From the IMG/VR virus record IMGVR_UViG_3300030044_000012: 64,000 nt of DNA; one strand, 5' to 3'. Below the pieces are notes generated by a model. It was not told the DNA's origin. It ran no database searches and worked only from the letters and a program-made list of their open reading frames with translations. This document shows positions 17,625 to 55,834 of this stretch, in pieces. Within the stretch, counting starts at the first letter, position 1. Every line of letters starts with the position of its first letter. This DNA is from an uncultured virus (IMG/VR IMGVR_UViG_3300030044_000012) (lineage: Duplodnaviria > Heunggongvirae > Uroviricota > Caudoviricetes). Position numbers and translations under genes: made by a program.

Positions 17625-17799
17625 TGTGAACGCTCCTTACATACCTAGTGGTGATGCTTCATTGTCTCCCCTTGCACGGGTTGGATTTAGTTACTACTTC
17701 CCAACTCTTCGGAAAGTATAGCCGTCAGATAGCGGTGGTTTAGTGCTATTCCTTGAAGGGAGTATTTTTCATCTCCTCTCCTCACACTGGGGTGACCCA

Positions 17800-18416: not shown

Positions 18417-18492
18417 TGGTGCGTCGGGTGGGAGTCGAACCCACAACCTGTCGGTTAAGAGCCGAATGCTCTGCCAGTTGAGCTACCGACGC
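18417..18492 (-). tRNA. tRNA-Lys(CUU)
   Basis: Cloverleaf with loop CT-CTT-AA and CCA end. Confidence 0.93.
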
Positions 18493-19009
18493 ATGATCCC
18501 TTATTAAAGGGGTTAAAAGTTAAGGTTCACAGTGTGGTGCAGGAAGATGATTGCTGTCACTTCCACGACGACGTAGCTGACAAATACAAGAAACAGAATC
18601 CCAAAAATTGGGTTATCTTGCACGATGTCCAGAAGCTTATTCGCTAAATCCTTCACTATTTCCTCCGCTTATCTTCTTCACGCCATCGGTCGCGATATGC
18701 CTTCCAGCACTTGCGACAAACATTATGCTTCGACTCACCACGCATACGCTTATTGAGCGTCGTGCGAAAGATTGCCGGATACTTCCCACAATCCGAACAC
18801 GTCTGCGGCATGGGTAGCCGCCTTACTTCTGTACACATCCGGCATCGCTGAACCACTGAATGTTGATAACTGGCACTAACTCTTCGCTGGTGTCCGTCTC
18901 AACCCATTCATACGTGGCGGTCAGCTTGCTGGGCTTTGAATCGGTGGATTCCAGAATTACTTTGATGCTGTTCGTCAAAGCATTCGTAAGATTCACTTGA
19001 TCTGATGCA

Positions 19010-19879
19010 TCATACGACATTCAATCCCTCCAAGGCTCTAACTACGGCTCCCATATCGGAAGCGTAAAATCCAGAACTGTTCAAGGTGTTGATTTCTACC
19101 ACCTTGTACTCACCACCACAAAGTCCAATGTCCATCACGTATGCAGTGTCAATCGGCTCTGCATAGGTAGAGTCATAAGTGTCAGACTCTGAGCAATCCA
19201 CCGCCAGCATATCCTTCACGAACTCGACCATTGGATGAAACAATGGGTTGTTCGAATCTACCCTCTGGTACATTATCTGTCGCCCGAGAGTACGGTATGA
19301 ACTACCTGTTACTAGTGTACCATCAACTATGAAGAACCGTGCCTCAAGATCAATCTTTTTTGGCTCGGCGTACATCACGGGAGTCTCCGGGGTTAAGCTG
19401 ATGTACCCGTCGTTTGACAAATCCATTATCCGATTCTTCCACTCAGCCAGTGCCACCCCGTCAATGAGGGTGCCGCTGAACGACTTGGAATCATGCACCG
19501 GGCGAACGAACTTTGATCCTTCAAAATTCAGTTCACTGAACGGACAGAACTGAGCGTCATCATTGAGGAAGTGCGGACCAAACCGGGCCTTCAAGTACCT
19601 CATGTCGAACTTCTCGTTCTGAAACCGCCCCGGCTTCCAACCCTTCTCAACAGCGATGTGACCGAGGGTTGTCGCCCCCCAAACCATTACACTGCCCTCC
19701 AACTTCAACTCATGGGCGAACACAACGTCAGGGCCGAAGTTATGGTCGATAATGTCACCCTCTCTGGCATGAGCAAGAACCTTAACCACGGTGTACTGAC
19801 ACCCGTTTTCTTCGAGTGCGTCGAGCAAGGTCTTGAACCCAAACTCATTAAACAGGTTGTCTTGAACTATGTGGTGCAT
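19010..19879 (-). CDS. ATP-grasp protein (R2K/DUF4343-like)
   Basis: FVRP..D.KSFSG, E.RFFIVDG, YVMDIG and KVVEIN..NSSGFY motifs. Confidence 0.75.
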   Translation of the reverse strand: MHHIVQDNLFNEFGFKTLLDALEENGCQYTVVKVLAHAREGDIIDHNFGPDVVFAHELKLEGSVMVWGATTLGHIAVEKGWKPGRFQNEKFDMRYLKARFGPHFLNDDAQFCPFSELNFEGSKFVRPVHDSKSFSGTLIDGVALAEWKNRIMDLSNDGYISLTPETPVMYAEPKKIDLEARFFIVDGTLVTGSSYRTLGRQIMYQRVDSNNPLFHPMVEFVKDMLAVDCSESDTYDSTYAEPIDTAYVMDIGLCGGEYKVVEINTLNSSGFYASDMGAVVRALEGLNVV

Positions 19880-20163
19880 CTTCGTCGCTTTCTATCAACT
19901 CGGTTGAACAGTTGTCTTCGACTACACGAACATCCAGCCCGTCAACGTACGCCTTGATAGTGGGAACAAACTCCCATTCCTTGTAACGATCCCACGGGTC
20001 TTCAATCTCAAGAACCACTCGGAATCTTCTCAATCATCCACCCTGTTGAAATTCCCGTGGGTGTCGGAGACTACCTTAACTTCAACTTCCATCTTAAGTA
20101 TACCTCAGTGCTAATTGCACAAAAGGCTAATACTCGGAAACTTGGCTCACCCGAAAGGGACGC

Positions 20164-20259
20164 TTTGCGGTGCTAGTCGGTGTTCTCACCGGACAAGCTT
20201 GGGACATCCAATGTATCGCACTGGGGAGACCCTAGCTGGTGTTGTAACCACACCGCAAA
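20164..20259 (-). ncRNA. putative multibranched structured RNA
   Basis: Closing stems TTTGCGGTG/CACCGCAAA and GCTAG/CTAGC with internal hairpins. Intergenic. Confidence 0.4.
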
Positions 20260-20602
20260 CTTGTTACTTGCTGTACTTGTCTTTTAACTTTCCAGCTTCC
20301 GCCGCCTTCGTGGTGTAATACTCATATAGGTTCTTCGCCGAGTCGGCTGGTCTCGGGTACTTAGCGTATAGACTGACAGGTGCGTTCTTGCTACGCTCTA
20401 ACCACAGCGCCTTGGCCGCAGCAGCCTTCTGTTGATACTTTACTTGCAGGTTAGCATAATAAGCTGCGGTCTTCGGTGATTGAGCGTTTGCAAAACACGA
20501 CAGTAGAATGATGCTTACGAATAATGCTTTCATAAAATTACCTCCACTTATATAAGACTGGGGTAACCCATGAAGAATTTGGCAATTATTCATAAAACTT
20601 TT

Positions 20603-20676
20603 TGGCTCGGCGTCAGAGATTCGAACTCCGGTTAACTGGGTCAGAGCCAGTCGTCCTACCGCTGAACGAACGCCGA
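20603..20676 (-). tRNA. tRNA-Gln(CUG)
   Basis: Loop CT-CTG-AC, T1-A72 pair, G73, CCA end. Confidence 0.9.
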
Positions 20677-20677
20677 A

Positions 20678-21833
20678 CTATACTTCCTTAAGCACTTTCA
20701 TGCCAAGGAGGACCATACACTGTTGTAATACGCCAACTGCATAATGAAGGGCGTAAACGAACCCGGCATCACCATGCTGAATCGACTTCTTACCATACAC
20801 CTCTGACAGCTTCTTCGCCAGAGACAGAGCAAACTGTGCGATGTACGTAGGCTCCTTTTGGTCGATAGCCTTTTGCCAGTAGTATTGCAAGTAGCTGGCA
20901 AACCCACAAAGCTGGGCATCTTCCAGAGATAGAACATCCGGGTCACCTTCAATCGCAAAAGATAAAGCCTTGCTGACCTTTGCATTAGTGTGGGAGATGT
21001 AGATTCCGGGGCTTGTAATGTTGCACCAGTTCTTCACATCGCACACAGTGTCCTTACCTACTGACGTGGAGTTAAACTGCCACGCCAGCACGTTCCAAGC
21101 TAAATCGAAAGGGTGTGGCGTGGGTTTTAATACCGCAAGGGTCTCATTGATGAGTTCGTCGGCCAACATTAGGTTGACGTTCTCACCTTCCAACTTTACT
21201 GTACTCCGCATCTTTTTCTTATCGAGGCCGAGGACAAGCCCCATGGACAAATGTTTGTTGCCCACACCTAACGACTGAAAGTGTGAATGTTGTTCCTGAC
21301 CTGTAAGATAGAAATCAGGCTTCACAACTTCGGCGAAACTCAAGTCGTGTGCGGCGTAGGTTGCCGCTCCTGTAGACTTGTAGATCACCACGCTGCCCAG
21401 CATCTTGCATCCAGCGTACCCACCCTCACCTTCAGTGAGAAGCACGGTTGGGGCCGGTAGCTCATTGTCGAGATACATGACCGGACTGTATCCGGCGACT
21501 TGGCACCATGCCTTATACTTGGCAAGAGCACCCTCTACAACCCCATTGGCGGCTCCCAGCATCGCCACGGGTTTGGCTCCAGTGATGTTGGCAATCGCAG
21601 CCGCAATGCAAAGGTTTTTCAAATGCCCAACGTGAAGGTCTTTGTTCAGGTTAGGTGAAAACCCATCAAATATGATGCCTGATGGTACGGCCTTCGTCGG
21701 CCATTCCCAAGCTTGTGGGGTGACATGGTAGTTGTGAAATATTCCCGTGGGCTTATAATCAAACCCGACGAAGATACTCCAGTGAAGTCGAAGATGTAAT
21801 TCCGACTCCGATGTTCTCAGGCATTGGTTTCAT
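20678..21833 (-). CDS. argS: arginyl-tRNA synthetase split by a +1 frameshift near 21771
   Basis: FSPNLNKDLHVGH (HIGH, upstream of the TTG used by the ORF track), KSTG..TY...DL, GLV..DKKKMRS and EP..IA.F...LA...Y. The ATG at 21833 has an AGGAG SD but is in another frame. Confidence 0.82.
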
Positions 21834-22252
21834 GATGCGTCTCCTAAAATTACTCCAAAGGTGTGCCTCTCGGCCAAAGACTCTAAGGGCTGGCATGGTC
21901 GTCTCAGTACAGGGGTAAGGATGTCTTAATTCCCCGTTCCCAATCAGACCCACAGTTCCTCTCGTAATGTGTGGGCAAAACCATGTCTTGCTACTAGTTT
22001 GCCAAGTTGGCCGATGTAGGAGGATACTGACCCCGTTACCGGGGGGCTAAAGCCTACTGTCGAACCACTCAGGTACTCCATTCACATTCCCTGCGGTTAT
22101 ACGCTGGACTTTAGTGCATCCCCAAAACATTGTCCAGACCCTTGGCCTCGGTCGCGCTAGACCTACTACCCTCCGCTCGTCACTCCTTAGAAGATGGGAT
22201 TCTAACCCGACCTCCCTTTGGAACTTGTGTGGCCGAATGTCAGGCCACGAAG

Positions 22253-22325
22253 CTGGAACGGAAGGACTCGAACCTTCAACCTTGGGATTCAGAATCCCCT
22301 GCACTGCCAATTGTGCTACGTTCCA
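22253..22325 (-). tRNA. tRNA-Gln(CUG), CCA not encoded
   Basis: Acceptor TGGAACG/CGTTCCA and loop TT-CTG-AA. Confidence 0.88.
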
Positions 22326-22331
22326 AAAACT

Positions 22332-22408
22332 TGGTACCTCAGAGTGGATTCGAACCACTGAATGCGGCCTTATGAGAGCCGTGTCTTAGACCACTTGACG
22401 ACTGAGGC
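22332..22408 (-). tRNA. tRNA-Met/Ile2(CAU)
   Basis: Loop CT-CAT-AA and CCA end. Confidence 0.88.
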
Positions 22409-22745
22409 ATCTTTCTTTGTGGTGCCGACGTAAATGGCAGTTCGCACAAAGCATGATACACTTTTCAATTTCCACAATCAGTCTGGTGAGTGACCAACCA
22501 AGAACCCGACTGTCTGATACATTGGAATCCTTATCCCCTTGATGATGAAACTGGAGTACCACAATGTCGGTCTCCCCACAATCGAGGCAAGGATGTGATT
22601 CCTTGTACGTTTTGATGTATGCCCGGTTCCTCACCGTTGCAACTTCCGTGGTGTACTTCTTAGCCCTTGCCTTAACAGCTTCCTTGTTTGCTTCGTAATG
22701 GCGTTTCGCTGACCTAGCTTGTGCTTCTTTGTTCCTGTTACTCAT
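22386..22745 (-). CDS. HNH endonuclease (homing-type) ending inside a tRNA
   Basis: CLDCGE...LQFHH...LCANCH motifs. Probable start MSNRNK. Confidence 0.8.
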   Translation of the reverse strand: MSNRNKEAQARSAKRHYEANKEAVKARAKKYTTEVATVRNRAYIKTYKESHPCLDCGETDIVVLQFHHQGDKDSNVSDSRVLGWSLTRLIVEIEKCIMLCANCHLRRHHKERCLSRQVV

Positions 22746-22788
22746 ACAATAGACCTCTATGTATGAGTTAGGAAGTCGAATTTTAAAT

Positions 22789-22898
22789 TGGCTCGGGGGA
22801 CGAGATTCGAACTCGTGATAACCTCCAGCTTCGACTTCCCGGCGCATCCGGTCGGCCTTTATTACGCTGGCGCTTTGCCACGCCTAAGCTATCCCCTG
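22789..22898 (-). ncRNA. tRNA-like RNA with a 36-nt expanded anticodon loop
   Basis: D arm, CCAGC/GCTGG stem, ACGAG-TTCGAAT-CTCGT and CCA. The acceptor is only partly paired. Confidence 0.6.
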
Positions 22899-23294
22899 TA
22901 CTCAAGGGTCAATCTAATGTCTGTTCCGGCGATGTTTGGCACGAAAGGGACAATATATTAACTCTTCATTGAAAGTGAAGTAACCGTGGCGTACACCGCG
23001 ATGAGTAAATTGTCAAAGAACAAACTAACTCGGGCCTGAGCCCCTAAACTTCCACTTCTTCAACTTCGCTGGAGCCACATGCAGGGCATGTAATCCAGAA
23101 CTTCGTGTCGGGATGGTAAGCATCGCCAACCGCAATCTTTGCACTTGACCTGCTCTTCCATCACGTCATCCATGAGTGCAGTCCTTAATGTGGCTTGACC
23201 CATAGGGGCCACTAACACGAACCCACCCTCTTCCATAACAACGCTTGCAAAATAAGGAAGCAAACCAACGTCGAATCATTACATCTCCCAAACT

Positions 23295-23347
23295 TGGGGA
23301 GGGTTGATTTTCGCCAAGGTTATGACCCTTGTAGCGGACAACCCTCC
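23295..23347 (-). ncRNA. armless tRNA-like RNA with CAT loop
   Basis: GGAGGGTTG/CAACCCTCC plus CCA, and CAAGG-GTCATAA-CCTTG. Confidence 0.5.
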
Positions 23348-23457
23348 TTTGCCGCCTTCCGCGTTACCAGATGCACGACAAACTCAGCGGACGTGGGAAG
23401 CTGTTTCCCTTCTAAGTAGGACTTACTCACACGGCCTACACGTCCTAAACTATGTTA

Positions 23458-23548
23458 TGGCTCCGAGGGTAGGATTCGAACCTACAGGGAAGGATAAACC
23501 AACACGCATTAACAGTGCGTTCCGTTGCCAATTACGGTTTACCTCGGA
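23458..23548 (-). tRNA. tRNA-Asn(GUU) with 18-nt variable region
   Basis: Loop CT-GTT-AA, G73, CCA end. Confidence 0.85.
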
Positions 23549-23555
23549 ACAACTT

Positions 23556-23630
23556 TGGCTCACTCGGAGAGATTCGAACTCCCGACCCGCTGGTTAACGG
23601 CCAGCCGCTCTGCCACTGAGCTACGAGTGA
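23556..23630 (-). tRNA. tRNA-Asn(GUU) with C33
   Basis: Loop CC-GTT-AA and CCA end. Confidence 0.88.
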
Positions 23631-23650
23631 ACAACTTGTACATCTAAACT

Positions 23651-23739
23651 TGGCTCAAGGGAAGAGACTCGAACTCTCAGAGGGCTTTCACCCACTTGCT
23701 TAACAGGCAAGTACGCTACCAGTTACGTTTTACCCTTGA
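23651..23739 (-). tRNA. tRNA-Asn(GUU) with long variable arm
   Basis: V-arm GGGT-GAAA-GCCC and CCA end. Confidence 0.86.
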
Positions 23740-23761
23740 ACAACTTGTGCTTCTAAACCTT

Positions 23762-23836
23762 TGGCAGGGGCGGAGGGATTCGAACCCCCAAGTTCGGTTT
23801 TGGAGACCGACAGTTTGCCGTTGAGCTTACGCCCCT
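23762..23836 (-). tRNA. tRNA-Trp(CCA)
   Basis: Loop CT-CCA-AA, G73, CCA end. Confidence 0.9.
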
Positions 23837-23842
23837 GTAACT

Positions 23843-23949
23843 TAGACGACGGGCGTCCTTCCGTTGAACGACGCGATGCTCTATGCATCTGGTAGAGGAC
23901 TTACTAACGGCCTTGACCAGATGGGATTCGAACCCATACAGCCCGTCTA
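23843..23949 (-). ncRNA. circularly permuted tRNA-like RNA (YrlA-like order)
   Basis: T arm precedes D arm, closed by GACGGGC/GCCCGTC. Confidence 0.5.
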
Positions 23950-23967
23950 CTTGTTGGGCAAACTTCT

Positions 23968-24041
23968 TGCCCGAATAGTAGGACTCGAACCTACACTGTG
24001 TCTCGTTCGTAGCGAGATTGACTATCCATTGCCGATGGGGC
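23968..24041 (-). pseudogene. degenerate tRNA-Arg(ACG)
   Basis: Intact anticodon and T arms. Broken acceptor stem and no CCA. Confidence 0.6.
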
Positions 24042-24271
24042 CACATGTCACCGTTCGATTACTTTTCGGCATGTCACCGAACGGGTACAAACTTGAGCCG
24101 GGGCTTACCCGGAACAGCGGACTTACTCCGACCGCCGCCCGTGGGCTCGGTCACTGCGTCTGCCAGAGGATTTACTCACTCGACCTCTGCTACACTTCGA
24201 AAGAGGCAACATATTACCTATTACACGGTCAAATCGCACATAACCGGCAATATGTTGCCTTTTATCCAACT

Positions 24272-24360
24272 TGGTGTACCCGGAGGGACTCGAACCCCCG
24301 TGGAGAACTTTCGTTCAACAGATTCGTAGTCTGGTGCCTCATCCGCTAGGCTACGGGTAC
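24272..24360 (-). tRNA. tRNA-Arg(ACG) with long variable arm
   Basis: V-arm GAAC-GAAA-GTTC and CCA end. Confidence 0.88.
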
Positions 24361-24452
24361 ATGGTGAAACTAAATCCGCCCCCTTTGCCATTTGTTGTCG
24401 CGAACAACGCCGCTTACGCGGGAACCGATTTGAACGGTCTCAGGGATGGTAC

Positions 24453-24528
24453 TGGGGCACCCGGTGAGAATCGAACTCACGACCTACTCCTTCGGAGGGA
24501 GCCGCTCTATCCACTGAGCTACGGGTGC
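24453..24528 (-). tRNA. tRNA-Arg(CCG)
   Basis: Loop CT-CCG-AA and CCA end. Confidence 0.92.
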
Positions 24529-24757
24529 AAAACTTAAGCCGGGTCTCTCCAGCCGGGGGTCACTCCACTTCGACTTGCCATTCAACCTAACTTCGGACAT
24601 CCCGAAGGTCTATTGACTGTCTTCACCGCCGAGTGGCGGAACGTCACGCAAGGTGTCGCGTTCTCGACGTAGATTCTAGCGGTGGATTTCCTTCAGGGTT
24701 TCCCCTTACTGGTATTACATCCCTTTCGGGTACCGCACTGTCCACGTCGAAACTTAT

Positions 24758-24833
24758 TGGGGCGGCTGGAGAGATTCGAACTCTCGACTACCTGAGCCAC
24801 AGTCAGGCGTTCTACCGCTGAACTACAGCCGCC
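24758..24833 (-). tRNA. tRNA-His(GUG), G-1 encoded
   Basis: Loop CT-GTG-GC, G-1:C73 pair, CCA end. Confidence 0.92.
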
Positions 24834-24847
24834 ATAAAAACAAAACT

Positions 24848-24928
24848 TGGGGCGAATGGTGGGAATTGAACCCACGAGACCACGGTTTCACAGACCGGAG
24901 GCACATACCAACACTGCCGACAAACGCC
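24848..24928 (-). tRNA. tRNA-His(GUG) variant, G-1 encoded
   Basis: Loop CT-GTG-AA, two T.T acceptor mismatches, CCA end. Confidence 0.8.
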
Positions 24929-25046
24929 ATAAACTTTGGGGTCTCTCCCTCCCGTCAAGCCGACACGTCTGGCTTTCGACCTATTACGCTCATGTTGTCA
25001 AACATCATCTCGATTTGACCTGAGTCAATCGGAATATCGTACATCT

Positions 25047-25134
25047 TGGCAGGGGTGGAGGGGGTCGAACCCTCAGTGAGCGTTACGCTCGGCGGTTTTG
25101 GAGACCGCTGCATTTCCAACAATGCTTCACCCCT
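25047..25134 (-). tRNA. tRNA-Trp(CCA) with long variable arm
   Basis: V-arm GAGCG-TAA-CGCTC, G73, CCA end. Confidence 0.88.
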
Positions 25135-25166
25135 AAAAACAAAAAGCCCTAGCCGGTGGCTAGGGT
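25135..25166 (-). terminator. attenuator terminator 1
   Basis: ACCCTAGCC-ACC-GGCTAGGGC plus TTTTTGTTTTT, abutting tRNA-Trp. Confidence 0.88.
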
Positions 25167-25195
25167 CATGTGAATCCAATCTGGCGGCTTAGGAG

Positions 25196-25297
25196 TTAAT
25201 CATCCCAACCCTCCACGACGGAGCACAGACCCATAGCATGGCGCTGATTTCGCTTTTGCCACTGGTGCCGCATCGGATTGGACTGTTTCATCGTCAT
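25196..25297 (-). CDS. attenuator leader peptide 1 (MTMKQSNPMRHQWQKRNQRHAMGLCSVVEGWDD)
   Basis: TAAGGA SD. Codons match the downstream tRNA set. The 3' half forms the antiterminator. Confidence 0.82.
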   Translation of the reverse strand: MTMKQSNPMRHQWQKRNQRHAMGLCSVVEGWDD

Positions 25298-25466
25298 GGT
25301 GATTCCTTATGCGAGGCGTCTTCACAACCTCACTTACTTATAGTACCCGAAGTCGAGATATTTACAACACTATTTTTTGATTTATTTTCGAAAATCTGTG
25401 GAAAACCCTAAATTTGACAATTTCAGCCATTTCCGTTAAAACTCTTCTTGCGTCGAAAGGAGCGTC

Positions 25467-30164: not shown

Positions 30165-32126
30165 TCATAGATGTCCTTCCTTCTTCCAGTGGTAAAGCAT
30201 CGCCTCTACTACAATCTTGTTGATGGCCCCACGATCACACAGGGGTGGCAATGGAGACACCTTCTCCGCTTCAACCACAGCTTCGCGAAGTCGGTTGTAC
30301 TCACTCGTAACACGCTCGATGTTCCACCCACCGTTACGGATTTCGAGGAGTGTCGATACATTCGGACGAGGGAAGGTCATAGTTCCGGTCTGCAACAGTT
30401 CAAGGCATTCATCCATAGAGCGAACCATGTGCATCGCGGCCTTGCAGTTTCCTTGAAATGCGGGACGACCTTGACTGCGAGTGACCAGTGTGCCCAACGG
30501 CATTTCAAAGCAGACAACCCGGTGATTTTCCACTTTGATTTCCTTGATGGGGTAACCATACTTCTGCTTCGGCTCCTCTCCTGCCCTCAGGATTCCACTT
30601 TTGAAGTTGACACAACGAAACTGACTTTGGTCAGCGGGGCGGTACACCTGATACATCGGAATGTTTCCTAATTTGGTTTCATCTCGGTCGTATTCATAAG
30701 GACCGTTGACCACACAAATATGCCCTGAAGACACCATCATTGCTTGAACATCATCGGCCAATTTCTTAACCGATGTATAAAGGAGGGTGCCTTGCCCATC
30801 CTTTCTTTCTTTCTTGGTACGATAACCATCACCCAAGCAAAGACTGTTCCATAAAATCCACGCCTGTTCGTAGCCCAATTGGAAACACCAATCAGGTAAA
30901 TGCTTAGCCTTGTGGTGACCGAAGTCCTCGTATAGCTTGTACGCCAGCTTCCTTGGGAAGGTCCAAACTGTCTCATATTCGACGTGTTCGCGTGGATAAT
31001 CATAGCGGTGCCCATGGAAAATTGTACGCAGCCTATCTGCGTACTGGTAATACTCTTCTTTGCCTTCGGGTGTTTGCACAACCCTAACGCTCTTCACCCT
31101 CCCCTCGCGAAAAGAGATGCTGCCCTCTGACAGGTATAACCCAGCCAGTGACAGGTATTCATCCATCACATCGTATTGATAGATGCGTGGTGAGGCCGAA
31201 CGAGGAGTATGGTACATCGAGCGTACAACTCGGGCTTTAACCCCGCCCATGAGGTCTGACAATTGAACGAGACGCCAATCGGCTTTACCGGGGTAATATT
31301 TTGTGCTGAATCCTAATTTAGGGTTTCTGGACGCAGGGGATGCCACCATATTGTGGTTGGGAGTCACAACACAGCGAGTGAGTTGAGGTTCAACAACGTA
31401 CATGAAACCCGAATGATATTTATCAATCCTCCGCAGCGGAGTGTCAAATCGCACAGCATCAAACCGCACGCCGGATGTCTGTCCCTTAATGAAGTCAAAC
31501 GTGGCTAGTTTGTCCGAATCAAGCACATCATCAAATCGCTTCCAACCGTGGTCAGTGAGAAACTCTGTTTCAGAATCAAGGTAGCAATCGTACCCATGGG
31601 CAGCTATCAAATCATCCCTCTGACCATGTTTCCCGGCTCCCTGTAGCCCCAACAAGCGGTTGTACTGGCTCTTCCCTAGTCCGAGGAAGGCCGCAGTGTG
31701 TCCAGAGGCAAGGAAGAGGCTCCTGTGAGGTAGAATGTAGGTGTCCCATACGCTCGGGTGAGTCACATGACTATCCTTGATGGGTTCGGGAGCGAATAGG
31801 TAGCTGAGGATGGTAGGGTTACCCTTCATGGCGAGTCCCGCCCAGCGCCTGAGAGTGTAAGCTTTAAGATCGGTGTCATCAGCCGTGTTCTTTTCGTATT
31901 GGTCGGACGTTCCCTGTGTGATGTGTCCCTTCTGTCGAGGGTCTTCATTTCCGAGGGCGAGTTCGAACACAGGGTCGCCGATGTACACACCGGCCACATC
32001 GAGGTCGGACTTCCCTTCGATACGGGCTCCGTGCATTGAAGAGCCTGACGCGAAGGCAAGAATCACCTGATCCAACCTCAGCATCGGATTTCTCAACAAC
32101 ACATTAACCAATTCACCGTTAAGCAC
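30165..32126 (-). CDS. DNA polymerase-beta-superfamily nucleotidyltransferase (RlaP/YcgL-like) with intein
   Basis: GS..HG.....SDLD..GVY, KGNP..L..LF, GYD|..|CKAAMH..R motifs. Confidence 0.85.
   Translation of the reverse strand: MLNGELVNVLLRNPMLRLDQVILAFASGSSMHGARIEGKSDLDVAGVYIGDPVFELALGNEDPRQKGHITQGTSDQYEKNTADDTDLKAYTLRRWAGLAMKGNPTILSYLFAPEPIKDSHVTHPSVWDTYILPHRSLFLASGHTAAFLGLGKSQYNRLLGLQGAGKHGQRDDLIAAHGYDCYLDSETEFLTDHGWKRFDDVLDSDKLATFDFIKGQTSGVRFDAVRFDTPLRRIDKYHSGFMYVVEPQLTRCVVTPNHNMVASPASRNPKLGFSTKYYPGKADWRLVQLSDLMGGVKARVVRSMYHTPRSASPRIYQYDVMDEYLSLAGLYLSEGSISFREGRVKSVRVVQTPEGKEEYYQYADRLRTIFHGHRYDYPREHVEYETVWTFPRKLAYKLYEDFGHHKAKHLPDWCFQLGYEQAWILWNSLCLGDGYRTKKERKDGQGTLLYTSVKKLADDVQAMMVSSGHICVVNGPYEYDRDETKLGNIPMYQVYRPADQSQFRCVNFKSGILRAGEEPKQKYGYPIKEIKVENHRVVCFEMPLGTLVTRSQGRPAFQGNCKAAMHMVRSMDECLELLQTGTMTFPRPNVSTLLEIRNGGWNIERVTSEYNRLREAVVEAEKVSPLPPLCDRGAINKIVVEAMLYHWKKEGHL
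30447..31586 (-). mobile_element. intein with LAGLIDADG endonuclease (380 aa)
   Basis: Starts CYLDSETEFLT..GWK, block B VTPNH, LAGLYLSEG and LCLGDG, ends FQGN|C. Confidence 0.9.
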
Positions 32127-37725: not shown

Positions 37726-37819
37726 TGGTGGTGGATGAGGGAGTCGAACCCGTCCCGGCACGCCAATCTAGCGTTTATCAGGGTGTATAAATCCCCGCCG
37801 CACACCGATGCTATCCACC
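37726..37819 (-). tRNA. atypical tRNA with UAU anticodon (Ile or allo-tRNA-like)
   Basis: Acceptor GGTGGAT/ATCCACC, loop TT-TAT-AC, long V-arm, bulged T stem, CCA end. Confidence 0.65.
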
Positions 37820-38331
37820 ATTTTCATTTTGTCTTTATATTTCTTTGTGTTCTTCCCCTTATACGTTGGGGTTAATGTATGACAATTTGGACAAATGAAT
37901 CTCAAGTTTTCTATTCGATTATCTTTCTTATCACCGTTTACATGGTCTAACTCAATGGGAATAGGGTGATTTTCCCACATTGTTCTCCGGCATTCTTCAC
38001 AACGATGCTCTTTAATCCCCTCTGATATTAGCCTCCTCTTCAAGCTATTGAGGTTTTTATAAGTGGAGTCTTTAACAAGGATAGAGGATAGAGGTGCCCT
38101 GCGCCCCCAGTTGCGGGTATGGTTAACCATCTTTAACCCATGGTTCCACCCCTGTCCTTTCATGTGGGATACATCTACACTTAGTCGTTTTGCGGACAGC
38201 ATTAACGAGTAATGTGTGTTTCCCTTGGCTTGCTTCCCTAACACCTTAGCCACTTCACGCCATGAAAAACTTATACGTACAGCTTCTATAAATTGTTCAT
38301 CAGTCCAACTTCTACTTCTTCCCATACCCAT
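37768..38331 (-). CDS. HNH endonuclease ending inside a tRNA
   Basis: CEEC, LDHVNGD..DNRIENLRFICPNCH motifs. Confidence 0.88.
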   Translation of the reverse strand: MGMGRSRSWTDEQFIEAVRISFSWREVAKVLGKQAKGNTHYSLMLSAKRLSVDVSHMKGQGWNHGLKMVNHTRNWGRRAPLSSILVKDSTYKNLNSLKRRLISEGIKEHRCEECRRTMWENHPIPIELDHVNGDKKDNRIENLRFICPNCHTLTPTYKGKNTKKYKDKMKMVDSIGVRRGFIHPDKR

Positions 38332-38393
38332 TGCTCCTAACTAACAATGGATTCGGAAGTTGTAAAATAAACTGGTGCGTGTTAACTTATTTG

Positions 38394-38481
38394 TGGTAGG
38401 GCTGGTGGGACTCGAACCCACACCGTGCGAAACGGACCATCAGATTTTAAGTCTGCGTGATATGCCATTCTCTACAGCCCC
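38394..38481 (-). tRNA. tRNA-Leu(UAA)
   Basis: Loop CT-TAA-AA, V-arm, A73, CCA end. Confidence 0.9.
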
Positions 38482-39211
38482 AAATTTTACTTCTTAAATC
38501 CCTTGATACGTTCTTGTGAGAGCGTAGCCACCGACCTTGGCTGCGGCGGATGTTCAATTACTTCCCTGAGGCGCTCGGTGAACACTCGCCCGTATTCAGC
38601 ATCGGCCTGTTGAACCGCCTCAAACAACTCCGGGGTGCGATTCTTCACGTACGCAGTTGAAGCTTGAAGCAGATGGGCTCTTGCAAGTTTGACGGGCTCG
38701 TAGCTATTCAACTGGTCTACTTGCTCATCGGATAGTGTCTTGGTGTCTTCAGCCATACCTACCTAATACTCAAATTCCATACGATTGGCGTCATCCAGCT
38801 TAACCCAAAAGCGACAACCTTTCACCTTCTTACCAGAAATACGACTGGCGTTAAACGTCACCGAATCAAAATCCTTCGAGCCGTTCCGGATGTAAATCCG
38901 ATGTAGCTTAAGGACTGTACCCTTTGGCAGAGTTACCTTGGTAGCTGCCATCTCCTTCCGCCAATCGTTCACACACTTGAGCCCGAAGTGTTCAAACATC
39001 CCCCAATTACGAGACTCATGGTACAGGAGGAACGTCCAATCGCTGGCAGTCGTGAACTCCGTCCCCAAAGCGGGAATAGACATCCGTTGCTTCTTCATCG
39101 CTCACCCCAACTCATCTTGCTACGCATCGCTTCAAAAAACCCACTGCTATGGAGCCGCACTAGATTCACCGTGTGCTCGGAACGGCATTGACCTCGGTAC
39201 TGCACTTAAAC

Positions 39212-39299
39212 TGGCGGAGGCGGACGGAGTTGAACCCCCAAGTCCTTTCGGTACGTCCCGTTTCGAGCGGGGTGGGCTTGCCACATGCCCAACGCCTCC
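39212..39299 (-). tRNA. tRNA-Ser(CGA)
   Basis: Loop CT-CGA-AA, V-arm, G73. Confidence 0.9.
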
Positions 39300-39451
39300 A
39301 TTTTACAACTACCCTATATCGTTCTCAAACTTTCCTTAAATTTTGGTGGGGGTACGCAGTACGCAGCTTGGCTCTATCCACTTCAGGCTTGGCATAGGCT
39401 GCTTTGTAGCGTTCCAATGCCTCATTAACCTACATTATACCTCCAATATCA

Positions 39452-39538
39452 TGGCGGAGAGCCGAGAACACGATTCCCAAACCCGAAGGTTCCATCTGTT
39501 TAGCAAACAGCGCCGTCAGCCCCAACGGTTGACTCTCC
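39452..39538 (-). tRNA. tRNA-Ser(GCU), 8/4-type fold
   Basis: GGAGAGTC/GGCTCTCC, 4-bp T stem, T loop ATCGTGT. Confidence 0.8.
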
Positions 39539-39542
39539 ATTT

Positions 39543-39617
39543 TGGTCGGGCCAGAAGGATTCGAACCTTCAACCTAGAAATTATGAGTTTCGTGCTCTAC
39601 CCTTGAGCTATAGCCCG
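39543..39617 (-). tRNA. tRNA-Ile2/Met(CAU)
   Basis: Loop CT-CAT-AA and CCA end. Confidence 0.88.
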
Positions 39618-40166
39618 ATTTGTTCTTCCAGTCCAGCCTTCGAATGCCCCCGCTTGCCTAGCTGCTCTAAGTCCATCTAACAAAAACAACCATGCAGCGT
39701 AGGGTACTGACCCCCGAAAGTAATTGCACCGAATGCAAGCCGCTTTCACATTGTCCTTTGTGTGCCCCCTTGTGTTGTCAATCCGGTCGAGAGTCATCCG
39801 AAGTTCGGTCTCTCCACAGTAAAAACACCCATCAGCAATCACAGCACTAACCCAATTACGGTCGAGGTCATTATCTCTCCTTTTCAATTTATCACTTCTC
39901 TTACTGTCGTTAGTGATAAACTTTCCCGTGTATTTTGGGTCTTTTCGGTACTCCCTTACTCTCTTGTTTGTTCTCTGTTTATACAGAGGGTCGGCGGCGC
40001 ATCTGGAAAGATAAGTCTGTTTCTTCCGAGTGTTCCGTTTTTTGTTATCACAGGTTCTGCAAACTTTCTTGATGTACTCACTACCACCAGTCCGGTTTGT
40101 GTAGAACTCGTCCCTGTGTTTAGGCATCTCGCATCGCTTACAAATGATAATAATTTCAGTGTCCAT
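39597..40166 (-). CDS. HNH-like endonuclease ending inside a tRNA
   Basis: CFYCG....TLDRIDN..GH..DNV..AC..CN motif with N-terminal CxxC pairs. Confidence 0.82.
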   Translation of the reverse strand: MDTEIIIICKRCEMPKHRDEFYTNRTGGSEYIKKVCRTCDNKKRNTRKKQTYLSRCAADPLYKQRTNKRVREYRKDPKYTGKFITNDSKRSDKLKRRDNDLDRNWVSAVIADGCFYCGETELRMTLDRIDNTRGHTKDNVKAACIRCNYFRGSVPYAAWLFLLDGLRAARQAGAFEGWTGRTNRAIAQG

Positions 40167-40206
40167 ACCAATGACACTGATAGTTCATTTTGGCGGAATG
40201 CAAGTT

Positions 40207-40294
40207 TGGCGGAGAGTAATTGCATCGAACAATTATCCATCACTGGATACTATGGTTTTCAAGACCATTCGGGGAGCCAACCCCAGTACCCTCC
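40207..40294 (-). tRNA. tRNA-Ser(UGA)
   Basis: Loop CT-TGA-AA, V-arm, G73. Can fold 8/4 or 7/5. Confidence 0.82.
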
Positions 40295-40983
40295 AAATTT
40301 ATTTGGGCGACTCGGGACACCATCCGGTATACAGTTGGTGAGGTATCCCTCGCGTTTCGCACGATAGTCCACCGAATACCCGGTCACCTAGACTTACCGC
40401 TCCACCCTTCGCTAATACTTTCCCTGTGCAGGATTTGAACCTGCGGTTCCCCGGTTCTTTAGGGCGCGGTGACCGCTCCCGAGGAATCTATGTCACCGTC
40501 AGCATTAAACCACTCTGCCAACAGGAAAACTTATCTTTCCCACGCCACCAGCGGAATCTCAAACGGCGGGATTTCCACTTTGCAGTATGGCTTGTACTCA
40601 TCAAACTTGTGCTGACCGGGCAACGCTTCAACCCAGTAGCAAATCTCTTCTGCGAACACATCACTGAACTTCTGACGCCAATACACGAACCACTGCTTAT
40701 CTGCGTTCCACCGGGCGATACTCGCATTCCGGCAGCTTCCAAGATAGTAGGCTCCGTGTTCCAAATCTTCGAAGGCTACCATACCTTTCTTGTGCTTCTC
40801 AGGTGTCGGGCACTCACTGTATAGTTCACGTCGGAAGTATTGTTCTGCTTCTTCTCGTGATGTGCCTCGTGCCATGGAACTGGCTACACATCGTTCAAAC
40901 TCGGCACCGTAAATTTTGTTGCTCCCACAAAAGCAACACAGCATATCTACCGCGTTGAAGTCAATCATAGCACCCTTTCAAAC

Positions 40984-41071
40984 TGGCGGAGTCGGAGAGA
41001 TTCGAACTCTCGATACCTTTCGGTATGCACGTTTTCCAAACGTGTGACATAGACCACTCGACCACGACTCC
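40984..41071 (-). tRNA. tRNA-Ser(GGA)
   Basis: Loop TT-GGA-AA, V-arm ATACC-GAAA-GGTAT, G73. Confidence 0.92.
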
Positions 41072-41075
41072 GTGT

Positions 41076-41107
41076 AAAACAAAAAAGCCACCCGATTTGG
41101 GTGGCTT
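41076..41107 (-). terminator. attenuator terminator 2
   Basis: AAGCCACCC-AAATC-GGGTGGCTT plus TTTTGTTTT, 4 nt before tRNA-Ser. Confidence 0.88.
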
Positions 41108-41130
41108 CTGGAAACTTGTTGAAGACTTGT

Positions 41131-41223
41131 TCAATCCCAAGTATCAACACTTCCGCCACCACCGCGTCCAGTTGAACTGGACGAGCTAGATGAGGAGGTC
41201 GATATGGATAACGTGTTCTTCAT
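41131..41223 (-). CDS. attenuator leader peptide 2 (MKNTLSISTSSSSSSSSTGRGGGGSVDTWD)
   Basis: Eight consecutive Ser codons using all six synonyms, plus TTA and ATA. The 3' half forms the antiterminator. Confidence 0.85.
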   Translation of the reverse strand: MKNTLSISTSSSSSSSSTGRGGGGSVDTWD

Positions 41224-41966
41224 GACTGTATACATAATACGCCGAAAGTTGAGAAACCTGCAAACTATTTTTGAATTTTTTCGTGCCAGTCTTCTGGGTA
41301 GGGTGTAAGCTCTCCATTTTCAATAACTTGCTCGTACAAACTTCTCGCTTGATAATTCGTATAACTTACCGTGGAGTCCTTTCTACCCTTGCCCCCATGT
41401 CCCATATGGATTTTTTCGCACCATCTACATAGATAGAACTCCATCTTGTCACGGTGCCGGTGTGGGATGTCTTCGAGTGTGAGAGCACGGGCGTATGCCT
41501 CGGCGACCGAAGAGTGACACAGCTTACCAGCGTTGCCGTTGCCAATACACTCATGTCGATGAGCGTGTCCTCCGACCACCGCCACACGTGGAGAGGGAAC
41601 CGGCTTTCTGTTCACTGAAAAAGTGAAGCCGCAGCCGACGCAGACAACATATGCCCCCTTCTTCTCCGGGCTAACGATCCCGGCGCAAAGAGGACAGAAC
41701 TTGATGTCTTTCTTTTTGAGGTGGTCACCCATCTGATTTTGGGACGCACAGATGTTCAGCGATACGTTCAAGGGCGATGGCGATTCGCTCTTGCGTAGAA
41801 CTGCCTTGGGCAAGTTCGACTCTCTTTAACAGTCGTTGTGCAAGCCGCGTCTTTCCATCCCTAACCCCTCGGGCATACGTGTCTTCGTAGCTGTCTGGAA
41901 ACTCTGCTCCCACGGCCAGAATCGTATCACTAGCTACCAACCTTAGAAACTCTTCTTCAGCAGTAT

Positions 41967-44850: not shown

Positions 44851-47028
44851 TTAGACTTCCTCCACCGCAACACTAGTGTTTACCATCCCCATACCAGCAG
44901 CGTCCAGCGTGGCAATGAGCCAGTCCTTACCAACCTTCTGAGTCTTGGCTCCTTTGGCAACCAAGTCATCAAACTTGCTCAACTTGGTGGCTCCAGCATC
45001 ATCCCCCACAATCAGATAAGTCAGCTTCGCCGAGACTCCCGACTTTGCTACCCCACCGAGACTCTCCAGTTTAGCCGTCAACTTCTCACGGTCTTCATCG
45101 AAGGTGCCTGTAATGAGGAAGGTTGTTCCGGCGAGGGGCTGTCCCACGCCGTCTGCAAGCTTCGTGACCGTAGGCTTGGGACGAACGCCAGCATTGAACA
45201 AGGTCAGGCACATATCACGGTTCACCGGGTCAAGCGACCAATTCTTGAGGATGTCACTCTTGACATCGCCCAAGCTGTCAATGTTCCGGCCAGTGGCGGC
45301 TTCCATTTTCGCACAAAGGTTGGGCATGTCGTCGGCTTCAAGCTTTAACTCCTTCGCCAACAACTTACCGAGAGTGCGGCCAACCATAGGAATGCCAAGG
45401 GCAGCAATCCACTTATCCCATGGTGCCGTCTTCGCGTTCTCGATGGACTTAAGCATACGCAGGATGAGTACACTGAAGCCCTGCTTTGCCATGCGAGTCG
45501 CAAACTCATCTTCACCCTGTGCATCGCCATACTTCGCCTTCAACTTGCGAAGGTTTTCAAGGGCGTCAACTTGGAACTGGAATAACTCGCCAAGGTTCCG
45601 AGCATACTGATTCTTCACCAGCTTTGACGCCATGTCGTCGGCCAGACCGTCGATTTCAAGAATGTCGCGACCACCAATGTAGCTCAAGGTTTTCGCTATG
45701 CGACCGGGGCACCCCGCTGCATTTTCACAGGAACGGCTTGTGATACCACTGCTCTTGTCCGTCCACACCACGATGATGGAACCACACTCAGGACACTCTG
45801 TGGGCGGCACAATCGGGTCGCCTGTGTCATCCAACACCTTCACAATTTGGGGGATGACATCGCCAGAGCGAAGCATCTCAACCTTGGCTCCAATGGTTAG
45901 CCCCATGGTGGCAATCCAAGTCTCGTTGTTAAGCGTTGCACGAGTCACTGAGGCTCCGGCAAGGAAAACCGGGTCACACGTCGCCACGGGCGTCAGAGCG
46001 CCTTGACGACCTACCTGCCATGTGATGGAGCGAAGGTAAGTGGTGCCGGTTGCCGACTGCGGCTTGAAGCAGGTCATCCAGTTGGTGAATTTCGAAGCCA
46101 CACCGAGTTCCCTGCGGAGCTTGTGAGAGTCAACCTTGATAACCACGCCATCAGCCCTGATTTCAGACTTCGCATTCAAGGCCAAAATGTCGTCAATCGC
46201 TTTCACTACGCCGTCTGAACTGGTAACGAGAATGCCCTCGTACTTAGAGAATCCAGCCCTTTCTAGTAGCTGCATACGCTCGTAGTTGGAGTCAGGGAGA
46301 GCAGCATCGTTTGAAGGGGAATACACATCCCACGGCATGAGAAGAATTTCACGCGAAGCAACCACAGCGAGGTCTTTCTGTTTTAGAGTTCCCGCCGTGA
46401 GATTGCGAGTGGAGGCGTATGTCTTGAGCCCCTTGGCTGTTGCGTCAGCGTTGATGCGGTCAAGTTCACCGTCACGCATGACAAGTTCACCCCGGATGTT
46501 AATGTCGGGTGCCACATCCAGAAGAGGAGCGTGAACGAGGAACTGAGGGACACTCTTGAGAGCCTTGACCTGTGCGGTCTGGTCTTCCCCCTCGTCGCCT
46601 TTGCCCCGAGTCAGGGAGAACGTCAATGAACCATTGAGATAACGGTTTTCATTTGAAGTTCCATCCCGCTTGGGCTCCACGCATACTGCGGTGCCCGTGG
46701 GAAGGGTGAGATACCACGCCACCACATCTTCACGTTTGTACTGGTTCTCGATGGAGAGCATGGGACGAATGTGCTTGACGCGACCTGTGCCGTTGCGACC
46801 ATCAACTACAGCTACGGTAGTAGTGACGGCTGTATCACTGCCGACTTCAGTCAACGCCGGAGCGAACTCAGTCAGTGAGGGGTTCGCATCAATGATACCC
46901 CGAAGTTGAGCCTCCAAAATATCGTACTCGGCATCGGTGATAATCGGCTCAGCCAGAATGTAGTAGGCGTGTTGAGCCGCTTTCAGTCGCCCATTCATTT
47001 CGCGAACTACAGTTTCAAGAATTCCCAT
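44851..47028 (-). CDS. ligA: NAD-dependent DNA ligase
   Basis: YY....P.I.DAEYD, H..PMLS, EPKRDG (KxDG), RGE, DGVVIK, Zn finger, HhH and BRCT. Confidence 0.95.
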   Translation of the reverse strand: MGILETVVREMNGRLKAAQHAYYILAEPIITDAEYDILEAQLRGIIDANPSLTEFAPALTEVGSDTAVTTTVAVVDGRNGTGRVKHIRPMLSIENQYKREDVVAWYLTLPTGTAVCVEPKRDGTSNENRYLNGSLTFSLTRGKGDEGEDQTAQVKALKSVPQFLVHAPLLDVAPDINIRGELVMRDGELDRINADATAKGLKTYASTRNLTAGTLKQKDLAVVASREILLMPWDVYSPSNDAALPDSNYERMQLLERAGFSKYEGILVTSSDGVVKAIDDILALNAKSEIRADGVVIKVDSHKLRRELGVASKFTNWMTCFKPQSATGTTYLRSITWQVGRQGALTPVATCDPVFLAGASVTRATLNNETWIATMGLTIGAKVEMLRSGDVIPQIVKVLDDTGDPIVPPTECPECGSIIVVWTDKSSGITSRSCENAAGCPGRIAKTLSYIGGRDILEIDGLADDMASKLVKNQYARNLGELFQFQVDALENLRKLKAKYGDAQGEDEFATRMAKQGFSVLILRMLKSIENAKTAPWDKWIAALGIPMVGRTLGKLLAKELKLEADDMPNLCAKMEAATGRNIDSLGDVKSDILKNWSLDPVNRDMCLTLFNAGVRPKPTVTKLADGVGQPLAGTTFLITGTFDEDREKLTAKLESLGGVAKSGVSAKLTYLIVGDDAGATKLSKFDDLVAKGAKTQKVGKDWLIATLDAAGMGMVNTSVAVEEV

Positions 47029-54583: not shown

Positions 54584-55834
54584 TCACTTTCCTTTCGAAA
54601 GCAAATCGAACGACACCAGCTTCAGCTTCACCCGACCAAGAGCGCGGTCGTGCCGCTCAACCACCGGGCACACTACAATACCTTCCTTCATGTGGTTGGC
54701 GAAGGTAGAATTTCCGAGGCTGAGTTCCTTTAACTTCTCTGCGTCCCACGGTCCTCGGTAAATTACCGGAGCCCGGTACTGTTCCGGGAGGATGGCTTCA
54801 AGTTCCAAGTAATCAGCGAACCTATCAACTTTCAGCACATCGAAAATGCGGATGTGGTTAGGCTGATTCGGCTTCACGCCGTACTTCAGCTTCTGCACGT
54901 TGCCAAATGTCTCACCGTAAACAATCCAGTCTGGGTGCTCCTGACAAAACTTCGCCAGCCATGGGTGAGCACGGAACGCCCTCCACCACAGGTTGGCAGG
55001 AGAATCCAACCAGAACGCTTCCCTGCTACCGCAGAACTGCCGGTATTCACCTGTAACCCTGTCCTTGGCATAGACGAAGCGGCTGTTGGCACCATCAAGC
55101 TTCTCGGTCGCCACAACCTCTTCACCCGGCAAGAACACGTTAGGCCAGTTGTAGTAGTTTTCCACGTCGTACTCATGGAGCCACGGTAGGTCAGGACCGA
55201 TTTCACGCTCCCCTTCGGAACCTGCCGGGAGGGTTGGCTCGTAACGCTTCAGAGACATAGTGTCCCACACGTCGTCACCAACCTCGGCGGTCAAAAGGCA
55301 AGGCAGTTCGCGAAGTTCGTCGGTCGTTTCAAGGACGCTCTCAAGTCCGTTAATGTGGACGTTCTTACCGTTATCGCTGGTCATAAGAATCCAGCCCTTT
55401 TTGCACAGAGGGCACTCGGTGGTAGGCCAGAGCATACCGAACGACTGTACCCCCCTTAGACGACGAGCAGTGATACGTAGATTCTTGGTGTTGGCCTTTT
55501 CGCCGTCTTCGATGTGCTGGAGGCGAATGTTGTATTCATCTCTAATCGAAGAGGGAACGCCAACATTTCCCGGTATTCCGATGGGGTGAGTGAACTCCTT
55601 GGCTAGTTCGGCACGAGCGGAGTTGTTCCGCTTCAGAAAAGCGAAGTCTTCGGTATCTGGAACTACCGTATCAGGCTGAATGTAGACGGCCTTGGTGACG
55701 CCCTGCCAGTCTTCAGTGGCTACAACGCACGTGTAGGCATTCACACGGACAATCGAGAGACGAGTCGTCTCCGGGTCGGGGTGAGGTTCTAGTACAACGG
55801 GTACTACGTATGCATGGTGGTTACTGTCTGCCAT
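54584..55834 (-). CDS. RNA ligase, DRB0094/Rnl5-like
   Basis: N-terminal OB-like domain (PHP...RL, LRGVQS.G), TEKLDGAN, YGE.FG, FDV, EGIVV and KLK. Confidence 0.85.
   Translation of the reverse strand: MADSNHHAYVVPVVLEPHPDPETTRLSIVRVNAYTCVVATEDWQGVTKAVYIQPDTVVPDTEDFAFLKRNNSARAELAKEFTHPIGIPGNVGVPSSIRDEYNIRLQHIEDGEKANTKNLRITARRLRGVQSFGMLWPTTECPLCKKGWILMTSDNGKNVHINGLESVLETTDELRELPCLLTAEVGDDVWDTMSLKRYEPTLPAGSEGEREIGPDLPWLHEYDVENYYNWPNVFLPGEEVVATEKLDGANSRFVYAKDRVTGEYRQFCGSREAFWLDSPANLWWRAFRAHPWLAKFCQEHPDWIVYGETFGNVQKLKYGVKPNQPNHIRIFDVLKVDRFADYLELEAILPEQYRAPVIYRGPWDAEKLKELSLGNSTFANHMKEGIVVCPVVERHDRALGRVKLKLVSFDLLSKGK

Follow-up and report, generated by a model that had tools for sequence, protein, structure and literature searches.

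A serine-codon attenuator-like element ahead of phage transfer RNA genes

The uncultured virus IMGVR_UViG_3300030044_000012 (IMG/VR; Caudoviricetes) is represented by a DNA stretch of 64,000 nucleotides (nt), referred to here as the window. A sequence-only reading of this stretch had proposed that an attenuator lies ahead of a group of transfer RNA (tRNA) genes, and we confirm that positions 41076-41260 of the minus strand hold a serine-codon attenuator-like element at the head of phage tRNA genes. The element consists of a promoter-like region, a short open reading frame (ORF) rich in serine codons and an intrinsic terminator, all on the minus strand.

The promoter-like region (41229..41290) contains the motif TTCAAAAATAG at 41275..41265, a -35 hexamer TTGCAG at 41263..41258 and, after an 18-nt spacer, a -10 hexamer TATTAT at 41239..41234. 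The leader ORF (41131..41223) has 30 codons and encodes MKNTLSISTSSSSSSSSTGRGGGGSVDTWD; it begins at ATG 41223, 10 nt past the -10 hexamer, and ends with TGA at 41133..41131. Its frame reads ATG AAG AAC ACG, then TTA TCC ATA TCG ACC TCC TCA TCT AGC TCG TCC AGT TCA (codons 5-17, 41173..41211, the regulatory codon run or region 1), then ACT GGA CGC GGT GGT GGC GGA AGT GTT GAT ACT TGG GAT TGA. All six Ser codons, TTA and ATA occur within codons 5-17, and the codons quoted in the sequence-only reading are read exactly from this ATG. ATG 41235 was also considered as the leader start. It is unlikely to serve as one because it overlaps the -10 hexamer and is missing in two of the relatives described below, and the second ATG, 41223, was taken instead. 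A small hairpin, CGTCCAG-TTCAA-CTGGACG (41165..41183), lies within the end of the Ser run. It was seen in folds of the window and of the relatives L010 and L016, was absent in the relative L015, and may act as an RNA polymerase pause hairpin.

The intrinsic terminator (regions 3:4, 41073..41109) is formed by AGAAGCCACCC-AAATC-GGGTGGCTTTT followed by TTGTTTT, with 11 pairs of which 6 are G-C. This hairpin with its T-run (41109..41083) is the highest-scoring terminator-like site across 30000-48000, and tRNA-Ser(GGA) starts at 41071, 5 nt past the T-tract. The sequence GCCACC (41105..41100) is shared by two pairings, being the left arm of the terminator and the partner of GGTGGC (41160..41155) in an antiterminator (regions 2:3, 41099..41161) whose inner helices are GGAA/TTCC, TGTTGA/TCAACA and ACTTG/CAAGT and whose loop contains the stop TGA. 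These helices and the shared arm had all been predicted in the sequence-only reading. They were recovered as the minimum-energy structure when the terminator 3' arm was omitted from folding, which corresponds to the state before RNA polymerase has made region 4 (-25.9 kcal/mol; z = -4.21 against dinucleotide shuffles). The complete leader folds with the Ser-codon region paired to the G-rich segment GGTGGTGGCGGAAGTG (1:2), together with the terminator (3:4); the fold of this 193-nt RNA has z = -3.93, and 0 of 200 shuffles were as good. The alternative foldings appear to follow the four-segment logic of classical attenuators.

Rfam searches of 36000-42500 at E <= 1 returned nothing except tRNAs and two sub-threshold plastid families lying on tRNA genes. 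The T-box model (specifier loop, T-box sequence, stem I) had no match in this range, and neither did the covariance models of the Trp, His, Leu and Thr operon leaders. The exact 25-nt sequence of the terminator (GCCACCC-AAATC-GGGTGGC with the T-run) was found in 8 viral contigs (L001-L008), with no tRNA nearby and in unrelated context (one of them was read); this sharing may reflect convergence or a common host-type terminator.

The downstream cluster opens with tRNA-Ser(GGA) (40984..41071), identified by both ARAGORN and Rfam. It is followed on the minus strand by tRNA-Ser(UGA) (40294..40207), a CAU tRNA (39617..39543), a Ser(GCU)-like tRNA (39538..39452), tRNA-Ser(CGA) (39299..39212), tRNA-Leu(UAA) (38481..38394) and an Ile(UAU)-like tRNA of 94 nt (37819..37726). 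These are the anticodons listed in the sequence-only reading; ARAGORN called five of the genes at its default threshold and the Ser(GCU)-like and Ile(UAU)-like ones at a relaxed threshold. The remainder of the cluster (37726..40294) is interspersed with ORFs, including one for a 145-residue protein (40968..40531). Because the next tRNA downstream is 12 kilobases (kb) away, we regard the Ser cluster as distinct; the whole of it is presumably cotranscribed with the leader. The 145-residue protein has conserved Cys pairs and a GAYYxGSCRNA motif and belongs to no Pfam family. Its relatives (loci L033-L077) lie inside tRNA arrays of many otherwise differing phage contigs, a location that suggests a tRNA-related role.

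Twelve of the 13 codons of region 1 (41211..41173) are decoded by tRNAs of the downstream cluster. For a scan of codon content we used a set of the six Ser codons, TTA and ATA, which corresponds to the seven tRNAs Ser GGA/UGA/GCU/CGA, Leu UAA, Ile UAU and CAU. This set makes up 7.15% of the codons in 43 long minus-strand ORFs (12,412 codons), where TTA and ATA account for 0.53% and 0.61%, respectively. At least 11 of 13 set codons were found in only three overlapping positions, 41214..41208, among the 79,654 stop-free 13-codon segments of the six frames.

The 145-residue protein served as an anchor in the search for homologues of the leader, which led to the viral contig G001. From an alignment of 15 homologues, 80 metagenome loci were then collected, and a serine-run scan together with pattern scans yielded the leader homologues. 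Three diverged relatives of the Ser unit were obtained: L010 (MKNMISISSSSSSSSTSGWDGMGVCA) in G001, a 42.5-kb viral contig; L015 (MKNTLTISSSSSSSSTGGDGMVCV) in a metagenome contig; and L016 (MKNTLSISSSSTSSSSWTGGGVVNV), identical to L095 in G002, a viral contig of 139.7 kb. In the leader pattern scan of viral contigs L095 was the lone true new match and L094 a chance match; both matches of the pattern scan in genome contigs were also due to chance and are starts of ordinary genes. All three relatives keep the promoter motif, the position of the ATG, the frame, the terminator and tRNA-Ser(GGA). Whether homologues preserve the frame and the pairing had been named beforehand as a point on which the attenuator proposal could fail, and both were preserved in three of the three relatives found.

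The promoter motif is conserved in all four Ser units, with the ATG 6-10 nt after TATTAT. L010, L015 and L016 share the N-terminus MKN(T/M)(L/I)(S/T)IS and the Ser run with the window. ATA stands at codon 7 in 4/4 units and TTA at codon 5 in 3/4 (ATA in L010), and every leader contains 8-10 Ser codons. The leader ORFs have 30, 26, 24 and 25 codons in the four homologues, so that their length shifts by whole codons. After the Ser run the peptide diverges in sequence and length, while the RNA pairing scheme is retained. In the relatives tRNA-Ser(GGA) lies 11-21 nt past the terminator stem (the G001 copy was found by Rfam only), and downstream of L016 the tRNAs are Ser gga, gct, cga and tga, then CAT, Leu taa and Ile tat.

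Pairing segments of the Ser unit differ among the homologues in a coordinated manner. Region 3 is GCCACCC in the window, GCCGTCC in L010 and GCCGCCC in both L015 and L016. In the same order (window, L010, L015, L016), region 4 is GGGTGGC, GGACGGC, GGGCGGC and GGGTGGC, and region 2 is GGTGGC, GGACGGC, GGTGGC and GGCGGC. Regions 2, 3 and 4 change together, and the changes in region 3 of L010 are matched in both of its partners. In 4/4 homologues, region 3 and its upstream partner form a duplex better than that of dinucleotide shuffles (fractions as good 0.015, 0.001, 0.019 and 0.008). The minimum-energy fold without region 4 was the 2:3 helix in all four and with region 4 it was 1:2 plus 3:4, again in all four; z scores of the 2:3 helix in the three relatives ranged from -3.5 to -5.8. 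Pairing of regions 1 and 2 exceeded shuffles in the window (z -2.8) and in L010 (z -3.8). A pair count of the terminator over the four homologues gave 36/36 paired cells with 2 pairs changed on both sides, a result equalled by 57 of 500 shuffles. In all four the stop codon lies 12-21 nt past region 2, within the 2:3 loop; a terminating ribosome would therefore cover the antiterminator.

Comparable units were found at other tRNA clusters. A promoter profile built from six units matched only the Ser unit and 25393..25336 in the window. It also matched three sites outside its building set, one of them 5 nt before a tRNA-Met gene (L099 3437), which supports a transcription start just after TATTAT. 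The site at 25393..25336 is the promoter of a Trp/His/Arg unit (25135..25393, minus strand), which further has an AAGGA site, an ORF for MTMKQSNPMRHQWQKRNQRHAMGLCSVVEGWDD closed by a stop codon and a terminator at 25165..25147. An 88-nt tRNA-Trp comes after this terminator, and the cluster behind the unit (25134..13866) comprises Trp, His, Arg, Asn, Met, Gln and Lys tRNAs. The run MRHQWQKRNQRH in its leader is made solely of amino acids of its own tRNA cluster; among 82,384 segments it is the only 12/12 stretch for the Trp/His/Arg/Asn/Met/Gln/Lys codon set. The segment GCTATGGGTC right behind this run pairs with the left arm of the terminator of the unit. A homologue of the Trp/His/Arg unit is carried by G001 (L012 44-205).

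Two further types were detected in G002, both within the locus L099 (G002:89000-100500) and on the minus strand. The Leu/Tyr unit (10396..10127) has the promoter motif, MNRLSHNTTLGLSLYYLLSSGLVLSDRPS and a terminator, then Tyr, Tyr and five Leu tRNAs; its leader contains five Leu codons and no TTA, the tRNA for which belongs to the Ser cluster. The Pro/Phe unit (5409..5146) has the promoter motif, a leaderless MKFTSPNPSFPPCPTLHGPDL and a hairpin, then Pro, Pro, Met and Phe tRNAs. AAGGA-type sites are present in the Trp and Leu/Tyr units, and the Ser and Pro/Phe units are without a Shine-Dalgarno sequence. Own-cluster codons make up 45-56% of the Ser leaders versus a background of 11.2%, with 0% from the Leu/Tyr set. 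The corresponding values are 53-61% over 25.3% for the Trp leader type, 36% over 11.6% for Leu/Tyr and 30% over 8.1% for Pro/Phe. Every leader is enriched for the codons of its own cluster and not for those of other clusters; the Leu/Tyr leader additionally has 25% Ser-set codons.

A perfect hairpin with a T-run ending at most 25 nt upstream was found at 7 of the 429 tRNAs in the loci examined. These seven are the five leader units, a weak site before the window tRNA-Arg(ccg) and a site in the unrelated metagenome contig L069. Upstream of the weak hairpin (24554..24537) there is no ORF with cognate codons, and the site was left out of the count of units; each of the other six tRNAs is the first one behind a leader unit. 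The unit in L069 (58-223) consists of a 32-codon ORF and a terminator directly before a 25-tRNA array, with the stop codon inside the 5' arm of an antiterminator of 16 base pairs that overlaps the terminator. Its ORF contains all 20 amino acids, as do 3 of 19,395 long-ORF windows and 1 of 231 small ORFs. L069 represents one of at least two unrelated phage lineages in which the design is seen. Among 198 tRNAs preceded by a gap of at least 110 nt, a relaxed scan gave 21 with a hairpin and T-run and no further convincing cognate leader, and the Ala/Glu/Gly cluster at the end of G002 showed no clear terminator in the 205 nt of upstream sequence present.

In our view the element is likely to be a ribosome-mediated (leader-peptide) transcription attenuator that heads an operon of phage tRNA genes, in which a decoding shortage would induce the matching tRNAs. 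Every structural claim of the sequence-only reading was reproduced, and the leader-terminator units at other tRNA sub-clusters give its attenuator interpretation further backing. What the sequences show is the architecture, its conservation with compensation and, in several independent units, the match between codons and tRNAs. From these features we infer the start site, translation of the leader, termination and its efficiency, and the response to tRNA shortage. Transcription would begin at the conserved promoter, a few bases before the ATG, and a ribosome would translate the 30-codon leader. Given an ample supply of the tRNAs that read TTA, ATA and the six Ser codons, the ribosome would reach the TGA and sit on the antiterminator, the terminator would form, and transcription would end 5 nt before tRNA-Ser(GGA). 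If any of these tRNAs were scarce or uncharged, the ribosome would stall in the Ser/TTA/ATA run (region 1), freeing the G-rich region 2 for region 3. The 2:3 pairing would then block the terminator and let RNA polymerase enter tRNA-Ser(GGA), with read-through presumably carrying on into the Ser(UGA, GCU, CGA), Leu(UAA), Ile(UAU) and CAU tRNAs. With no translation at all, 1:2 and 3:4 would form and transcription would terminate. The quantity sensed would be the decoding capacity for exactly those codons that the operon products read, amounting to feedback on tRNA supply. Sensing of single isoacceptors by the Ser leader is speculation.

Several observations weigh against this interpretation. No Shine-Dalgarno sequence precedes the leader ATG in the window Ser unit or in L010, L015 and L016. 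Since it is missing and the ATG lies 10 nt after the -10 hexamer, the Ser leader messenger RNA is probably leaderless, and the case for leader translation from such a start depends on the promoter spacing of 6-10 nt from -10 to ATG. Use of all six Ser codons is not significant when taken alone, as its chance is 0.11-0.34 for 8-11 Ser codons at phage usage. Two of the seven cluster tRNAs, Ser(gct) and Ile(tat), were called solely at the relaxed ARAGORN threshold; both align with tRNAs called at the default threshold in relatives, the window Ser(gct) tRNA has an aberrant T-arm, and Rfam finds 4 of the 7. The covariation comes from four distinct sequences only, and its compensated events are two terminator pairs, largely from one lineage. 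Pairing of regions 1 and 2 is not above shuffles in L015 (z = -0.9) and L016 (z = -0.4). In the MAFFT alignment region 2 was shifted out of register by three columns in L015 and L016, and because of this the 2:3 covariation was read per sequence by a script and pair-counting was used for the terminator alone. One metatranscriptome run carries 27% of the sampled words from this stretch; its short contigs (depth about 2-5) extend over 41198..41348 and parts of adjacent genes, and these RNA-library contigs are sparse, come without ends or strand and could be DNA.

One possibility is that the element is a real attenuator which reports general translation status or serine starvation, the codon match merely slowing translation of the leader. 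In that case anything that slows ribosomes would open the tRNA operon. Classical attenuators sense how much of a tRNA is charged and so react to a lack of amino acids as well, and TTA and ATA, at 0.53% and 0.61% of codons, are rare in this phage and would slow ribosomes anyway. We think this unlikely, given that there are four or five unit types, each with its own codon set fitting its downstream tRNAs and not those of other clusters. The sets also mix amino acids without a shared biosynthetic pathway (Ser with Leu-UUA and Ile-AUA; Trp/His/Arg/Asn/Met/Gln/Lys), and the five Leu codons of the Leu/Tyr leader leave out precisely TTA, the codon served by the Ser cluster.

Other explanations would deny the element any regulatory link to the tRNAs. 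A promoter, a short ORF and a terminator make a complete transcription unit and the N-terminal eight residues are conserved, as might be expected of a separate small gene with a promoter and terminator of its own, for a Ser-rich micropeptide or a small RNA, that lies next to tRNA-Ser by coincidence while the tRNAs are expressed in some other way. What is conserved beyond these residues, however, is the RNA pairing, while the peptide lacks conservation of both sequence and length in its C-terminal half; no Rfam family matches, and the layout with matched codons is repeated at the head of other tRNA clusters. In addition, the gap between T-tract and tRNA is just 5-15 nt, and because this leaves no room for a promoter, tRNA-Ser(GGA) needs read-through. 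An independent gene seems very improbable to us. Of the explanations considered we give least credence to a constitutive terminator of the upstream gene, with the tRNA made by partial read-through or processing and with the Ser run and its complementarity as low-complexity by-products. Because no terminator lies between the upstream gene for a 182-residue protein (stop at 41265) and the leader, upstream transcripts would end at the Ser-unit terminator, and one RNA-library contig, which may be DNA, spans 41198..41348. Yet a conserved promoter motif stands between the upstream gene and the terminator even in L010 with its different upstream gene; the window contains such a codon run just once, and three-way covariation with significant 2:3 stability in 4/4 homologues would be unexpected for a simple terminator. 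A leader-peptide attenuator acting on the tRNA genes is the reading that we retain.

The window looks like part of a large uncultured phage. Its long ORFs are nearly all on the minus strand, ARAGORN identified 21 tRNA genes in it, also on the minus strand, and the sequencing runs containing the stretch are labelled peat metagenome. Megablast of 40400-42000 against cultured phages gave no match, and the upstream 182-residue protein had neither a tblastn match in cultured phages nor a relative in the viral contig collection. Matches in distant blastn searches were confined to tRNA-Ser genes of other phages, and the DNA ligase of the window shares no more than about 30% identity with any phage record. 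Pfam families detected in the window include an NAD-dependent DNA ligase, an RNA ligase, an RlaP-type RNA-repair protein and an HNH endonuclease. Near the tRNA clusters, on the minus strand, lie the genes for the RNA ligase (54584..55834), the RlaP-like nucleotidyltransferase (30165..32126) and the NAD-dependent DNA ligase (44851..47028), consistent with an RNA-repair tool kit. The HNH ORF of the window (37768..38331) is supported by Pfam. Relatives have ORFs in the interval from the leader unit or tRNA-Ser(GGA) to the gene that follows (L010 1830-2360, L012 225-555, L015 2920-3470), and by eye these look like HNH homing endonucleases. G001 also has a truncated tRNA-Ser(cga)-like remnant (L009, about 2912-2990).

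ARAGORN reported several unusually long tRNAs of 88-91 nt on the minus strand of the window, with anticodons for Lys (13866-13956), Arg (15275-15363), Asn (23651-23739), Arg (24272-24360) and Trp (25047-25134). Most of them adjoin a normal-length copy for the same amino acid. The 88-nt tRNA-Trp has a long extra arm, and the same was found in G001.

Ideas on why and when phage tRNA genes are expressed include compensation of codon usage, the replacement of host tRNAs that have been degraded and an escape from anticodon nucleases. If the element does control tRNA output, it would provide direct, self-limiting feedback on decoding capacity, and each of these ideas could be tested by asking which stress opens which unit. 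A broader possibility, which we put forward tentatively and to which we would give somewhat less than even chances, is that tRNA-rich phages carry modular decoding sensors, each tRNA sub-cluster being headed by a mini-ORF written in its own codons and only the missing tRNAs being switched on. Such a phage would measure the remaining decoding capacity of its host by codon family. This would matter under host defence by tRNA cleavage or depletion, and the window encodes the RNA ligase, RlaP-like protein and DNA ligase noted above. The signature of promoter, cognate-codon mini-ORF, terminator and tRNA can be searched for in viral metagenomes.

In a full-text literature search, which covered sources outside subscription journals and hence not the older papers on phages T4 and T5, no account of such an element was found. 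To our knowledge there is no report of attenuated tRNA genes, of multi-amino-acid leaders tailored to a tRNA set or of a phage setting for such leaders. If true, our interpretation would take classical attenuation beyond the biosynthesis of amino acids and an operon for a synthetase and into tRNA genes and viruses. Known leader-peptide attenuators of amino-acid biosynthetic operons in Proteobacteria include trpL, hisL, leuL, thrL, ilvL and pheL. Two papers on such attenuators are PMC1183508 and PMC3082878. The Ser unit resembles these leaders in its promoter-proximal short ORF with a regulatory codon run, its predicted 1:2, 2:3 and 3:4 alternatives, its intrinsic terminator before the first gene and a stop codon placed so that a finishing ribosome would block the antiterminator. 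It differs in that tRNA genes rather than enzymes would be regulated, in being phage-borne and in mixing codons of several amino acids in the run according to which tRNAs the operon contains; a Shine-Dalgarno sequence is also lacking in the Ser and Pro/Phe units, and there is no match to the Rfam leaders.

Attenuation of genes of the translation apparatus has a precedent in the pheM leader, which attenuates the E. coli pheST operon for phenylalanyl-tRNA synthetase. There, too, the signal is the decoding of cognate codons. However, pheM is cellular and controls a synthetase for one amino acid, whereas the product here would be the tRNA itself. Leaderless polycysteine short ORFs of mycobacteria are presented as Cys-responsive attenuators in the abstract of a preprint (bioRxiv 10.1101/834739). 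As described there, they share with the Ser unit a leaderless short ORF with a run of one codon type that sits at the head of an operon and serves as a sensor. The operons in that description are protein-coding, unlike the phage tRNA genes considered here with their explicit terminator and antiterminator. T-box riboswitches likewise convert tRNA status into read-through by a choice between terminator and antiterminator. They do so by binding uncharged tRNA directly and without translation, whereas in the phage element a translated codon run would act as the sensor.

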